UHGV virus genome: UHGV-0358046
Direction: 5' to 3' (one strand)
DNA: 40,202 nucleotides
From: a virus
This document shows, piece by piece, positions 12,001 through 15,000 of this stretch; positions within the stretch are counted from its first letter, which is position 1, and the number at the start of each line of letters is the position of its first letter. Position numbers: made by a program.

Positions 12001-15000
12001 AAGCTGGAAATTGTGCTTGATGCTCAGGAAATTGAAATGCTGGAGCGTAACTGTGCCACGCGTCGCCCCGGGCGTGCGCCTTACGAATTTGGTGAGTATA
12101 TAGCGTTACTGATCCGCCAGGATGATGCACGCGTGCGCGGGCGTATAAAATCGATCAGCAGAAAATGTTGCGGTAAGTGCGGCGAGAGAGTTCCAGTTAA
12201 TTCATGCCCGTGTAATGGTGACTCGCAATGCTGGGTGACTAAAGGCTGGCATGAAACGAAATTAATAGCGTGACATGTCACGAGTAGATTATGCATGATG
12301 AATTTGATGGGTTTTGAATACTGCCGCCAACTATGGCGGCTTTATTTTGCATGGTACTATTACCACAACGGTAACTATTACCACGGTGGTTATGATGCCT
12401 GCTGAACCTAAAACCTATAAACGCAAATCAACGCAATTTAAGCCACTAACAGCAATGCAGGAGGCTTATTGCCAGTCATACATCAAAACGCCTGAAAACC
12501 AGACTCAGGCAGCGATTAACGCAGGATTCTCCCCAAATACAGCGGCAGTTAAAGCCAGTGTCATGATGCGCGATGAACGCATTCAAAAACGCATTGCCGA
12601 GTTGATGGAGGAGCGCAACAAACGAATGCGCGTCAGTGCTGATTACGTTCTCATGCGCCTGGTGGAGATCGACCAGATGGACGTGATTGATATCCTCAAC
12701 GACGATGGGAGCCTTAAGCCAATCCGCGAGTGGCCGAAAATCTGGCGCACTACGCTTAGCGGCTTTGATCTGTCATCGACCATCATGAACATGAACGAGG
12801 ATTCGATAGAGACAATCCTCAAAAAAATTAAATGGCCTGACAAGGTGAAGAACCTCGAACTGATTGGTAAGCACGTCGACGTCAACGCATTCAAAGAACG
12901 CCTGGATGTTAATGTGAATGTGACAATTGCTGATCGCATAGCGGCAGCCAGGAAGCGACTCAAAGAACGTCAGGATGGTAATCAGTGACAGATGCAGCGT
13001 TATCTCCTGAAGAGCAGTTAATCGAAGATATTGCAGGGTTCACTCACGATCCGCTTGGCTATGCCCTCTATGCGTTCCCGTGGGGGGAAGAGGGTACTGA
13101 ACTGGCACATGCCACCGGTCCACGTCAGTGGCAGGCCGATGCGTTCCGAGAGATACGTGATCACCTGCAGAATCCAGAGACGCGATATCAGCCGCTTATG
13201 CTGGCACGTGCTTCTGGTCACGGTATTGGTAAATCCGCATTCATCTCAATGCTGATCAACTGGGGCATGTCCACTTGCGAGGATTGTAAGGTCGTGGTGA
13301 CCGCCAACACCGACAACCAGCTACGAACGAAGACCTGGCCGGAAATTATCAAGTGGTCAAACCTTGCTATCACGAAAGACTGGTTTACCTGTACCGCTAC
13401 CGCGATGTACAGCAATGACCCTGGGCACGACAAGCGGTGGCGAGCTGACGCAATCCCCTGGTCTGAGCACAACACTGAGGCATTCGCCGGACTACACAAC
13501 GAGCGTAAACGCATCATCGTGGTATTTGATGAAGCGTCGAACATTGCGGATCTGGTGTGGGAAGTTGCCGAGGGTGCGCTAACGGACGAAGACACTGAGA
13601 TTATCTGGGTGGCTTTCGGAAACCCTACACGTAACACCGGGCGTTTCCGTGAATGTTTCCGCAAATACAAACACCGCTGGAAAACTGCGCAGATTGACAG
13701 CAGGACGGTGGAAGGCACCAACAAACAGCAGTTGCAGAAATGGGTTGATGACTACGGGGAAGATAGCGACTTCGTTAAAATCCGTGTGCGTGGCATATTC
13801 CCTGATGCATCTGAATTGCAGTTTATCCCTACCGGTCTTACTGACGAGGCAATGAAACGGGTGGTAACCGCTGCGCAGGTTGCACATGCTCCGGTGATAA
13901 TCGGCGTTGACCCGGCATACTCCGGCGTTGATGACGCTGTGATATACCTGCGGCAGGGGCTACACAGTAAGGTGCTGTGGACTGGCAACAAGACTACCGA
14001 CGATCTGATTATGGCGAAGCGTATCGCTGACTTTGAAGACCAGTATCAGGCTGACGCGGTGTTCATCGACTTCGGTTACGGAACCGGTTTGAAGTCAATC
14101 GGTGACGGCTGGGGTCGTACATGGCAACTTGTTCCGTTCGGTGGCGCGTCTACTGACCCGCAGATGCTTAACAAGCGTGGGGAGATGTTCAACTCATGCA
14201 AGACATGGCTGAGGCTCGGCGGCATGCTGGATGACCGGGAAACAGCGGACGACCTGTCGACGGCAGAGTACAAAGTTCGCGTGGACGGTAAAATCGTTAT
14301 CGAACCGAAGGAAGATATCAAAGAGCGACTTGGGCGTTCGCCGGGGAAAGGCGATGCGCTATTGCTGACGTTTGCTTTCCCGGTCTCGAAACGCATAAAT
14401 ATACCAGGACAGCAGAACCAGCAAGGCAAGGCCATCACAGATTACGATCCCTATGCTTAATCCGCTAGTGGGGATAATGTCGTTGATATCCTCTGATGAG
14501 GATAAAACAAAGCCAGCTCATCGGCTGGCTGTTTGTGACATGTCACGGTGTTACTTAATGGCATCAAATCCAGCGTTGATGGCTTCCACAATATTGATGG
14601 CACTTGTTTTATCGAAGTGCCCATTCTGAATAAGCGCCGCATGCAGGCATTGTAACTTCATGTTGTATAAGTGTTCGCTCATGTAATCATTATCACTTTT
14701 TGCTTTAGCGTAAACAGCGCGAGAAATATCAAACACATCGCCTTTTTCCATTTCAGAACGTTGTGCTGTTATCCAGTCATGGAATGTAACGCTAGTACCA
14801 TGGTCTTCGCTAAGAGTTAACCCGGCCAGTCCCTCACTCTGAATTACTTCGTAATGCATTTCATTACCAGCAAAAACGCCATAAAAAACGCAGTCTTCAG
14901 CCTGAACGATACGAGAATATTTTAATGGCCATTCATTTAGATACTTAGCCAACATATCAATTGTTTTCATGATCTCACCTTAAAAAAATGCCCGGCGACC

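Follow-up and report, generated by a model that had tools for sequence, protein, structure and literature searches.

A twelve-base palindrome at gene ends of an epsilon15-like phage, the putative binding site of a widespread phage-encoded protein family

Results

Sites, adjoining genes, and terminators

The window, i.e., the whole analyzed stretch of 40,202 nt, is the genome of a temperate podophage of E. coli related to epsilon15 and phiV10 (Uetakevirus). A preliminary description had pointed to three exact copies of a 12-bp perfect palindrome, two overlapping a TGA stop codon and the third located 4 nt from a TAA on the minus strand, each with a terminator close by. The features that matter here are the following.

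11935-12273, plus strand: regulator gene encoding the proposed 12-mer binder (112 aa; family of epsilon15 gp49 and N15 gp46, PHROG 536)
12270-12281: site 1, GTGACATGTCAC; the regulator gene ends with bases 2-4 (TGA) of this site
12323-12349, plus strand: intrinsic terminator 42 nt past site 1, followed by a repressor operator (12360-12374) and terS
14501-14530, minus strand: terminator composed of a hairpin and a T-run (called at 14530-14511), ends the minus-strand moron
14535-14546: site 2, GTGACATGTCAC; 4 nt past the hairpin behind terL and 4 nt from the stop of the minus-strand moron
14551-14970, minus strand: variable moron of unknown function (PHROG 4846); its stop abuts site 2, and other genes occupy the slot in relatives
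17622-17633: one-mismatch copy, GTGACATGGCAC, inside ORF 17570-17866; about 0.09 such copies are expected
31525-31941, plus strand: variable small gene with a match to PHROG 3716, ends in site 3
31938-31949: site 3, GTGACATGTCAC; overlaps the stop codon (TGA) with which the structural unit's last plus-strand gene ends, with a terminator directly after it
31950-31977, plus strand: intrinsic terminator immediately past site 3
32019-32037, minus strand: second hairpin, at the end of the converging leftward unit

Copies and stop codons are as described. Sites 1 and 3 read GCG-TGA-CATGTCAC, where the TGA terminates ORFs 11935-12273 and 31525-31941, respectively, and the TAA of ORF 14551-14970 (14551-14553, minus strand) lies 4 nt from site 2. 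The small gene at site 3 likely starts with the ATG at 31562, which would give it a lipoprotein-type signal (MRKVFLIFGFMLLVGC). GC-rich hairpins followed by T-runs, as expected for intrinsic terminators, are found beside all three sites, and the 12-mer itself lies outside the hairpins. One correction applies to site 2, where the canonical terminator serves the minus-strand gene; read rightward, this hairpin follows terL and its T-run is weak. Its stem shows compensatory changes among relatives. Thus, when read along the neighboring gene, all three sites share one order, namely stop codon, 12-mer, hairpin, and T-run.

The three 12-mers close three rightward transcription units: the early-right unit, terS-terL, and the unit from portal to tail. 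Repressor operators (TTACC-N5-GGTAA) are located at unit starts, at 12360 and 15568, and the 12-mers at unit ends. Every copy forms the exact junction between a conserved block and variable morons; the slot ending in site 3, for instance, holds different genes in phiV10, epsilon15, and Tyrion. Site 1 contains a weak promoter-like match, with GTGACA as -35 element, CATGAT 18 nt downstream, and the terminator following 42 nt downstream of the site. Promoter prediction revealed none at sites 2 and 3, and searches with Rfam and ARAGORN revealed no known RNA or tRNA at any of the three sites.

Occurrence of the palindrome

Exact copies of GTGACATGTCAC occur in the window at 12270, 14535, and 31938 only. 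The expected number, earlier given as about 0.002, was recomputed as 0.0024 under a uniform or composition model and as 0.0030 under a first-order Markov model. The probability of at least three copies is 2.2e-9, or approximately 9e-6 once all 4096 12-bp palindromes are allowed for, and no other 12-bp palindrome is present more than once in the window. The flanks of the three copies are mutually unrelated, hence they are not copies of a longer repeat. The one-mismatch copy at 17622 is retained in close relatives only and is missing from the homologous position of epsilon15; it is probably not a real site.

Two functions known from temperate phages were considered and rejected. The repressor-binding sites annotated in the epsilon15 record read ATTACC-N5-GGTAAT, and the ten copies of TTACC-N5-GGTAA in the window are found at places other than the 12-mer sites, so that the palindrome is not the repressor operator. 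A genome end or pac site was rejected as well: in N15, a cos phage, no 12-mer-type copy lies near cos, and the phiV10 record begins inside the palindrome because its authors numbered from just after the gp55 stop codon. A literature search, whose scope did not include the epsilon15 genome paper (PMC2698709), found neither the 12-mer nor its variants in a phage context.

Conservation among epsilon15-like phages

In related phages the motif is found at these same gene ends, and thus it is neither missing from them nor placed at random. Epsilon15 (approximately 76-80% DNA identity) and Tyrion contain the 12-mer unchanged at three places syntenic with those of the window, where it is invariant next to one flank of unrelated sequence. 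PhiV10 has two exact copies and, at the third position, a copy with one mismatch. Conservation of the 12-mer is 100%, compared to a mean top-base frequency of 0.46-0.54 in the variable flank. The register of site 1 relative to the stop codon is the same in epsilon15, Tyrion, 16 diverse prophages, and N15. The 12-mer of site 2 is invariant in 11 diverse contexts; about 31 of 80 close relatives have a mutated copy of this site or lack it, and it is therefore dispensable.

Association of the motif with one protein family

In generalized form the motif reads GTGAC-N2-GTCAC, and it travels with a single protein family, PHROG 536, to which the product of the gene ending in site 1 belongs. Among loci picked solely for a homologue of this 112-aa protein (3.08 Mb in total), we counted 321 sites where 2.9 are expected: 128 in 80 epsilon15-like loci, 34 in 25 GTDB prophages, 105 in 49 N15-like loci, and 54 in 21 Mu-like loci. 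Half-sites spaced by 0, 1, 3, or 4 bases yielded 0, 4, 0, and 0 sites, respectively. The tally spans epsilon15-like, N15-like, Mu-like, and Yersinia P2-like elements; the siphovirus K233 of Vibrio, not counted here, has three N2 sites and a single N3 site. The motif overlaps the homologue's stop codon or lies within 45 nt of it in 22 of 25 GTDB loci, 49 of 49 N15-like loci, and 20 of 21 Mu-like loci, irrespective of what follows downstream. In N15 and the Mu-like phages sites are found within the replication or transposase gene, or ahead of a promoter. Inside N15-type repA the 12-mer is invariant while adjoining synonymous positions vary, which indicates selection on the DNA itself.

Between the half-sites stands the dinucleotide AT in epsilon15-like, TG/CA in N15-like, GC in Yersinia, and CG/CA/TG in Mu-like elements. 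This central dinucleotide follows the phage lineage and not the host, as epsilon15-like and N15-like phages both infect E. coli. Proximity to terminators, by contrast, is specific for the epsilon15-like lineage. The earlier proposal of a termination or antitermination element is neither backed nor refuted by these observations.

The reverse approach started from 120 viral stretches picked solely for the 14-mer TGTGACATGTCACG. A family ORF was present in 46 of them, 43 of which have the motif within 45 nt of the ORF end, and a further 19 represent epsilon15-like terL or gp17 contexts. The remaining 55, six of them with at least two motifs, have no family gene inside the stretch and are left unclassified because the scan yields only short stretches.

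Two exceptions were noted. The prophage homologue L096 lacks the motif at the gene end, and the homologue of an Aeromonas phage has no GTGAC site. At the 3' end of the latter gene one 14-bp palindrome, GAAGCAATTGCTTC, is present as a single copy, which is too little to claim a changed specificity of this homologue. Overall, the pair of motif and PHROG 536 protein recurs in at least five unrelated kinds of temperate phages.

The candidate binder

The 112-aa protein is predicted to combine a ribbon-helix-helix (RHH) fold with a four-cysteine, zinc-type cluster (C40, C79, C82, and C99). The predicted structure contains an N-terminal beta-strand followed by two helices and resembles solved RHH members in fold; a conserved basic helix (ERKAAQRARQ) precedes this core. 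The palindromic target is consistent with a dimer of the protein, whose structure was predicted as a monomer.

Pfam at default thresholds gave no hit and hence no match to a curated RHH family. Matches below threshold were RepB-RCR_reg (E 0.034, with the Vibrio homologue) and YbfE, 'LexA regulated protein' (E 0.05). Sequence and profile searches against the PDB found nothing, a fold search in BFVD nothing informative, and a single-sequence AF2 model (pLDDT 54) was too poor for use. PHROG 536 comprises 242 clusters at 50% identity. Among the ORFs of the window, only 11935-12273 has homologues in N15, K233, Yersinia prophages, YenM, and the Aeromonas phage alike. P0183 and P0214, used as queries for related loci, returned no viral relatives.

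Discussion

A putative roadblock or insulator at unit ends

Of the functions proposed in the preliminary description, a protein-binding site marking operon ends is best supported: the motif is inherited together with a predicted RHH protein in five phage architectures, and binding is termed putative here, as the link between protein and site is correlative. We consider it reasonably probable that the 12-mer is the cognate site of the 112-aa phage protein, which may act there as a roadblock or insulator at the ends of transcription units.

According to this explanation, the protein would be made late in the early-right operon, recognize GTGAC-N2-GTCAC as a dimer, and then bind the three sites. 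Once bound, at the 3' ends of the rightward units, it would form a roadblock or insulator to elongating RNA polymerase, strengthen the adjacent terminators, and separate converging or successive units. Through site 1 it may also limit its own synthesis, because a polymerase stalled there would give transcripts without a stop codon. A precedent is LacI, a protein unrelated to the phage one, which likewise has a binding site where its own gene ends, namely the operator at the 3' end of lacI; LacI bound there reportedly forms a roadblock that leads to non-stop lacI mRNA and tmRNA tagging. In N15 and the Mu-like phages, sites inside the replication or transposase gene would let the same protein throttle that gene. 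Candidate effects of binding are autoregulation, looping, or, where units meet, a roadblock or insulator, and we infer the roadblock from site placement: intragenic or 3'-end positions in all lineages fit an action on elongation better than one at promoters.

The arrangement around site 1 resembles that of lambda Q and tR', as a regulator gene ending a nin-like region is followed by a site, a terminator, and the packaging and late genes. However, the lambda Q site is located in a promoter and is not known to be palindromic, while sites 2 and 3 have no promoter; no Pfam, NCBIfam, or PDB match relates the 112-aa protein to the Q family; and N15 has a separate Q-like gene 40 besides gene 46. Along this line, the Yersinia P2-like phage YenM_42.18 encodes, besides its PHROG 536 homologue, a 72-aa 'transcriptional regulator' after gpD, which we take to be in the position of P2 Ogr. 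Dispersed sites of the partition protein SopB are known from N15, which contains four copies of GCGACC-N2-GGTCGC. These likewise form a small set of dispersed palindromes for a phage-encoded protein, but they differ in sequence and in protein (SopB is of ParB type), and the GTGAC set of N15 consists of three copies and is tied to gene 46.

A possible role as promoter-proximal operators

An unlikely alternative is a classical operator, by which the protein activates or represses a promoter just past its own gene, with sites 2 and 3 as auxiliary, looping, or decoy sites. Its target would be the terS promoter here and LexA-controlled morons or antirepressor operons elsewhere. RHH repressors such as P22 Arc and Mnt, CopG, AmrZ, and the ParD/TacA antitoxins share with the 112-aa protein the predicted fold, the small size, and a palindrome fitting a dimer. 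Arc and Mnt control the antirepressor gene of P22, and 12-mer-type sites adjoin antirepressor operons in N15 and Tyrion. An activator or repressor of the classical kind would also fit several relatives, whose own-gene site precedes a promoter by 7-70 nt: in L084, L085, L089, and L093 there are 7-15 nt between the 12-mer and a -35/-10 pair with a LexA box, and in N15 (promoter Pa) the motif precedes the TTGACG -35 element of the antirepressor operon by 24 nt. Two of the Vibrio K233 sites precede start codons by 19-30 nt, full and partial sites are clustered upstream of a gene in YenM, and site 1 itself includes the -35-like GTGACA.

Against this, a promoter would not fit beside sites 2 and 3, which face nothing but antisense sequence, the sites of N15 repA and of Mu-like transposase genes lie deep within coding sequence, and the distance to the next promoter ranges from overlapping to more than 70 nt. 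RHH repressors bind operators that overlap promoters, whereas the phage 12-mers are found at gene 3' ends or inside genes, and these repressors lack the extra basic N-terminal helix and the C-terminal zinc-type cluster of the 112-aa protein.

MatP and genome folding

MatP, the organizer of the Ter macrodomain in E. coli and Vibrio, binds matS (GTGACRNYGTCAC), which has the same inverted GTGAC/GTCAC half-sites. MatP is an RHH protein, as the phage protein is predicted to be, and like matS the phage sites are a handful of dispersed copies placed irrespective of promoters. A conserved host protein, most obviously MatP, might therefore bind the sites so that the phage tethers or organizes its DNA, with or without gp49. 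Phages from Vibrio to E. coli share an invariant half-site, GTGAC, although their proteins are only about 30-40% identical, which a conserved host factor would explain equally well. Nevertheless, we regard this as quite improbable. The 13-bp matS has a spacing of N3 and the phage sites are strictly 12 bp (N2), with 321 N2 but not a single N3 site in the 3.08 Mb. N15-like and epsilon15-like phages of one host have different central bases, which track the protein subfamily. Moreover, a host factor does not account for the fixed attachment of one copy to the gp49-family gene across five architectures; this site within the gene of the proposed binder is a further difference from MatP/matS. MatP and gp49 share no detectable sequence similarity, and the binder proposed here is phage-encoded, carries a Cys4 cluster, and lacks the four-helix bundle of MatP.

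A phage-encoded miniature of this system appears similarly improbable. In that case, the RHH/zinc protein would bridge the three N2 sites and fold the genome into insulated loops, terS-terL forming one and the structural operon another, or it would compete or cooperate with MatP/MukBEF. If so, versions of the system would be common to podo-, sipho-, P2-like, Mu-like, and linear-plasmid phages of the MatP-bearing clade.

Module boundaries, RNA elements, and chance

The preliminary description had further proposed a module-boundary sequence promoting mosaic recombination. The boundary part stands, as each copy lies exactly at a conserved/variable junction and different morons abut sites 1, 2, and 3 across phages; for the promotion of recombination there is no evidence. 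Lambdoid phages are known to have boundary or linker sequences and moron terminators, which are likewise short, conserved, and located beside terminators at junctions of conserved modules and morons. The phages encode RecET-type recombinases, and gp49 might serve as an accessory factor of moron exchange. Still, we give a linker function very little credit: 12 bases are very short for homology-driven exchange, the motif resides inside conserved genes without exchange in N15-like and Mu-like phages, and, unlike lambdoid boundary sequences, it is a perfect palindrome common to unrelated phage types and co-inherited with one protein. A conserved functional site would passively give the same boundary pattern. 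According to the roadblock explanation, this appearance would be the passive result of a short sequence under retention.

An element acting in RNA is less probable still. It would be a small hairpin 5' of the terminators, bound by the arginine-rich N-terminus of gp49 in the manner of N/boxB or RAT, or else a stabilizer of RNA 3' ends. The motif is indeed transcribed immediately upstream of the terminator hairpins at all three sites, and the basic N-terminal helix is conserved. However, a stable, covarying hairpin of the N/boxB or RAT type was not found at the 12-mers: the hairpin has 4-5 bp and -2.7 to -4.9 kcal/mol, no better than shuffles (z -0.1 to -1.9), and the 'stem' is invariant and the 'loop' variable, the reverse of RNA covariation. 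In addition, positions 5 and 8 are conserved yet unable to pair in a 2-nt loop, and sites of other lineages have no terminator. Chance copies or remnants of a duplicated segment, for which only the small absolute number of three copies speaks, are refuted by a probability of about 2e-9, unrelated flanks, and syntenic positions in diverged phages.

Implications

The near-identity to matS half-sites raises the question of an interplay with host chromosome organizers, and the motif may be used as a practical marker of moron-insertion hotspots in these prophages. To our knowledge, no Q- or N-type late regulator has been recognized in epsilon15-like phages. For an RHH regulator the placement of the sites is unusual: across its own stop codon, at converging 3' ends, and, in other lineages, within genes for replication or transposase. 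Such a placement speaks for an influence on elongation, for insulation, or for looping of the DNA, and less for the occlusion of promoters. PHROG 536, a widespread and uncharacterized family, appears linked, on sequence grounds, to a precise DNA motif, whose copies can be predicted for each genome and which would make the two a testable regulator-operator pair.

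The palindrome at the ends of three transcription units

Sequence comparison places the window among the epsilon15/phiV10-like temperate podophages (Uetakevirus) of E. coli; it is ~97% identical to HEMP4, ZX5, TL-2011b and phiV10 and, over the structural genes, ~76-82% identical to epsilon15 and Tyrion. The exact 12-mer GTGACATGTCAC, of the general form GTGAC-N2-GTCAC, occurs at 12270, 14535 and 31938 (sites 1, 2 and 3), and a one-mismatch copy lies at 17622. By chance, 40.2 kb should hold 0.0024 exact copies (0.0030 with a first-order Markov model), close to the value of about 0.002 in the preliminary description; the probability of three or more is 2.2e-9, or ~9e-6 corrected for all 12-bp palindromes. 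No second repeated 12-bp palindrome was found in the window, and the sequences flanking the three copies are unrelated to each other.

The reported positions relative to stop codons and terminators hold as well. ORF 11935-12273 ends at site 1 and ORF 31525-31941 at site 3, each with the TGA in motif positions 2-4 as its stop codon; at site 2, a gap of 4 nt separates the motif from the stop of ORF 14551-14970 on the minus strand. All three sites have a neighbouring hairpin.

Terminator-like hairpins with a T-run
12323-12349, plus strand, near site 1
14530-14511, called on the minus strand, near site 2
31950-31977, plus strand, near site 3

Read along its adjacent gene, each site therefore has the stop codon first, then the 12-mer, the hairpin and the T-run.

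Gene order in the window
NinX-like gene, 112-aa gene (11935-12273; epsilon15 gp49 family), site 1, terminator, repressor operator
terS and terL, hairpin, site 2, minus-strand moron
portal through virion proteins, small variable gene, site 3, terminator
minus-strand genes (antirepressor among them), tailspike gene

TTACC-N5-GGTAA, which the epsilon15 record annotates as its repressor-binding site, is present in ten copies, with none expected (6215, 6277, 6989, 9276, 9338, 12360, 15568, 32720, 33868 and 34248). Besides those in the immunity region, there are copies ahead of terS (12360), the portal unit (15568), leftward units including the antirepressor (32720, 33868) and the tailspike (34248). 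Transcription units therefore have an operator at their start, and the three rightward units each have a 12-mer at their end; the operator positions suggest that every lytic promoter is under direct control of the prophage repressor.

Some further features of the window were recorded. Rfam matches to C4 antisense RNA (33649-33736, minus strand, 78.6 bits) and isrK (33755-33831, minus strand, 74.7 bits) lie immediately upstream of the antirepressor gene (32908-33645, minus strand), which shares 49% identity with part of N15 gene 30; we assign this operon to the RNA-controlled P1/N15 type. A tRNA-Arg (anticodon TCT; 15169-15245, minus strand) separates the terminase and portal units, and an Rfam match to sRNA-Xcc1 (2167-2256, minus strand) lies beside integrase-side genes. 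A direct repeat of ~80 nt (1447-1530 and 32880-32960) spans a GGCACA...TGTGCC hairpin and the last codons of the leftward genes 1475-2155 and 32908-33645; its core CCCTGTGCCGCCGC recurs at 17466 (minus strand). Near-identical terminator-like hairpins (AAACCCTCTGT...ACAGAGGGTTTTT) are found near both window ends (45-73 and 39742-39771), with no longer repeat found there.

Association of the palindrome with one protein family

Loci were gathered by homology to the 112-aa protein encoded by ORF 11935-12273 only.

Loci selected by the protein
IMG/VR close relatives (1.4 Mb), 80 loci: 128 sites, 127 exact and one GTGACGTGTCAC at the site-2 position
GTDB prophages (Citrobacter, Klebsiella, Pantoea, Erwinia, Yersinia, others), 25 loci: GTGAC-N2-GTCAC overlapping or near the homologue's stop in 22
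N15-like phage-plasmids, 49 loci: sites kept at each of the three N15 positions
Mu-like transposable phages (MuA/MuB confirmed), 21 loci: 20 with GTGACCGGTCAC in the 3'-terminal part of the homologue

The 128 IMG/VR sites are confined to the stop of the gene and the position after terL. Among the GTDB prophages, the motif varies (GTGACCTGTCAC, GTGACACGTCAC, GTGACAGGTCAC; GTGACGCGTCAC beside the Yersinia homologues of ~40% identity), and the site is kept regardless of whether a terminator with terS, a LexA-box promoter or xis-int follows. N15 gp46, 34% identical to the window protein, has its stop codon within GTGACTGGTCAC in the same register; N15 carries two further copies, one in front of the antirepressor-operon promoter, 24 nt from its -35, and one in repA, where across N15-like loci the 12 bases are invariant and nearby synonymous positions vary. 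Most Mu-like loci hold two more copies 441 bp apart, both within the transposase gene in one of them (L164). Three N2 sites occur in the Vibrio siphovirus K233, whose homologue shares 32% identity, and one of these precedes terS by 30 nt.

In total, 321 N2 sites were found in 3.08 Mb of protein-selected loci against 2.9 expected; spacings of 0, 1, 3 and 4 yielded 0, 4, 0 and 0 sites. Of all window ORFs, the 112-aa one alone has a homologue in each of N15, K233, the Yersinia prophages, the YenM phage and an Aeromonas phage. In the last of these (14AhydR10PP), no GTGAC-type site is found anywhere, though the homologue is present; its 3' end holds a single-copy 14-bp palindrome, GAAGCAATTGCTTC (3371-3384), which may represent a change of specificity.

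For the reverse test, 120 viral stretches were selected solely for TGTGACATGTCACG. A family ORF is present in 46, with the motif at most 45 nt from the ORF end in 43 of these, and 19 more are epsilon15-like terL or gp17 contexts. The other 55, all short, were left unclassified; six hold at least two motifs. Two or three copies within 5-6 kb were seen in viral contigs of other phage groups (L207 at 6848 and 12274; L234 at 1463 and 6515; L297 at 876 and 6185; L293 at 2009, 5267 and 7190). No family gene was found within these four stretches; it may lie outside them, or the motif may be in wider use.

Conservation in epsilon15-like relatives

Related phages carry the motif at the same gene ends. 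Exact copies occur in epsilon15 at 39612 (gp49 stop), 2142 (after terL) and 19517 (gp18 stop), and in Tyrion at 41755, 2702 and 20377; in phiV10, two copies are exact and a third has a single mismatch. In motif-anchored alignments of contexts chosen by motif presence, all 12 bases are kept in 16 diverse site-1, 11 site-2 and 4 site-3 contexts, and one flank per set is essentially unrelated (mean top-base frequency 0.46-0.54). The accessory genes in this variable flank always differ between phages: site 1 is followed by LexA-box promoters with small genes, UmuD-like or unknown, site 2 by any of at least five minus-strand morons, and site 3 is preceded by differing small membrane or lipoprotein genes. 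The look of a module boundary, one of the options raised initially, is real at the conserved/variable junctions, but we regard it as the passive by-product of a sequence that has to be kept. Site 2 is not essential: it is absent or mutated by one base in ~31 of 80 close relatives.

A LexA-box promoter (CTGT-N8-ACAG) follows the regulator gene and site in L084 and L085 (both 10350-10400), L089 (10555-10610), L093 (1120-1170) and the Yersinia prophages L105-L107, and drives either a UmuD-like gene (PHROG 3469) or an uncharacterised one of 85 aa (PHROG 2100); in these prophages the regulator-to-terS interval is an SOS-controlled moron slot. Three diverged prophages carry the exact 12-mer within a conserved 107-aa gene (PHROG 2479; L092 at 232, L096 at 3890, L097 at 4164), where it encodes C-D-M-S by identical codons, suggesting that selection acts on the DNA here too.

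The candidate binding protein

Clustering at 50% identity divides the family into 242 groups. Most members are 105-130 aa long and stand alone; E7, R8 and R13 in a basic N-terminal helix, a P-Y...E-Y...L-I core and four cysteines (C40, C79, C82, C99) are conserved. PHROG 536 is labelled 'transcriptional regulator', and sub-threshold matches to RepB-RCR_reg and YbfE are the sole sequence-level support for the protein class. The predicted fold is ribbon-helix-helix, and a 12-bp palindrome is what a dimer of such a protein would naturally read. Within a lineage the central dinucleotide does not vary, and it differs between lineages with a common host (in E. coli phages, AT in epsilon15-like and TG/CA in N15-like), which favours a phage-encoded reader. 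Of the initial options, that of a protein-binding site gains from the co-inheritance of the motif with one protein family; that this family supplies the binder is well supported, albeit indirectly, by these comparisons.

Its strongest rival is host MatP, likewise a ribbon-helix-helix protein, whose matS site GTGACRNYGTCAC has half-sites identical to those of the 12-mer. However, the spacing is strictly N2, the motif is linked to one phage gene, and no sequence relationship between MatP and gp49 was found, so that binding by MatP seems improbable. An RNA hairpin is a very unlikely target: its folding energy (-2.7 to -4.9 kcal/mol) is weak and does not surpass that of shuffled sequence, and invariant half-sites around a variable centre point to duplex recognition by a dimer.

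Two other palindromes were noted. In K233, a single 13-bp GTGACACCGTCAC (19491-19503), lying across a stop codon and conforming to the matS consensus, shares the genome with the three N2 sites. The N15 genome holds a separate, dispersed set of four GCGACC-N2-GGTCGC-type inverted repeats, presumably the known SopB partition sites.

Proposed function

N15 carries its own Q-like gene besides gp46, and the Yersinia P2-like phage YenM_42.18 has a 72-aa 'transcriptional regulator' after gpD, probably in the position of P2 Ogr; the 112-aa family is therefore not simply the missing late activator. Across lineages, the sites keep to no fixed promoter geometry: some overlap or fall within the 3' end of the gene for the regulator itself, some stand where converging units end, others sit in a replication or transposase gene, and others precede promoters by varied distances. 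Such placement suits a roadblock or insulator protein that acts on polymerase during elongation, or a protein that links distant sites. In this phage, the 112-aa protein would be produced at the end of the early-right operon, occupy the three unit ends, reinforce the neighbouring terminators and limit its own synthesis. LacI, with an operator at the 3' end of lacI, offers a precedent for a regulator with a site at the end of its own gene, as at site 1. A classical role at the promoter just downstream of the gene and MatP-like looping by the 112-aa protein are serious alternatives, and the roadblock mechanism is an unproven proposal.

No earlier description of the protein-site pair was found in the searchable literature, and as far as that literature shows, this conserved pair is apparently undescribed. 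Its novelty lies in the unusual site placement and the wide distribution for a predicted ribbon-helix-helix regulator with a palindromic site.
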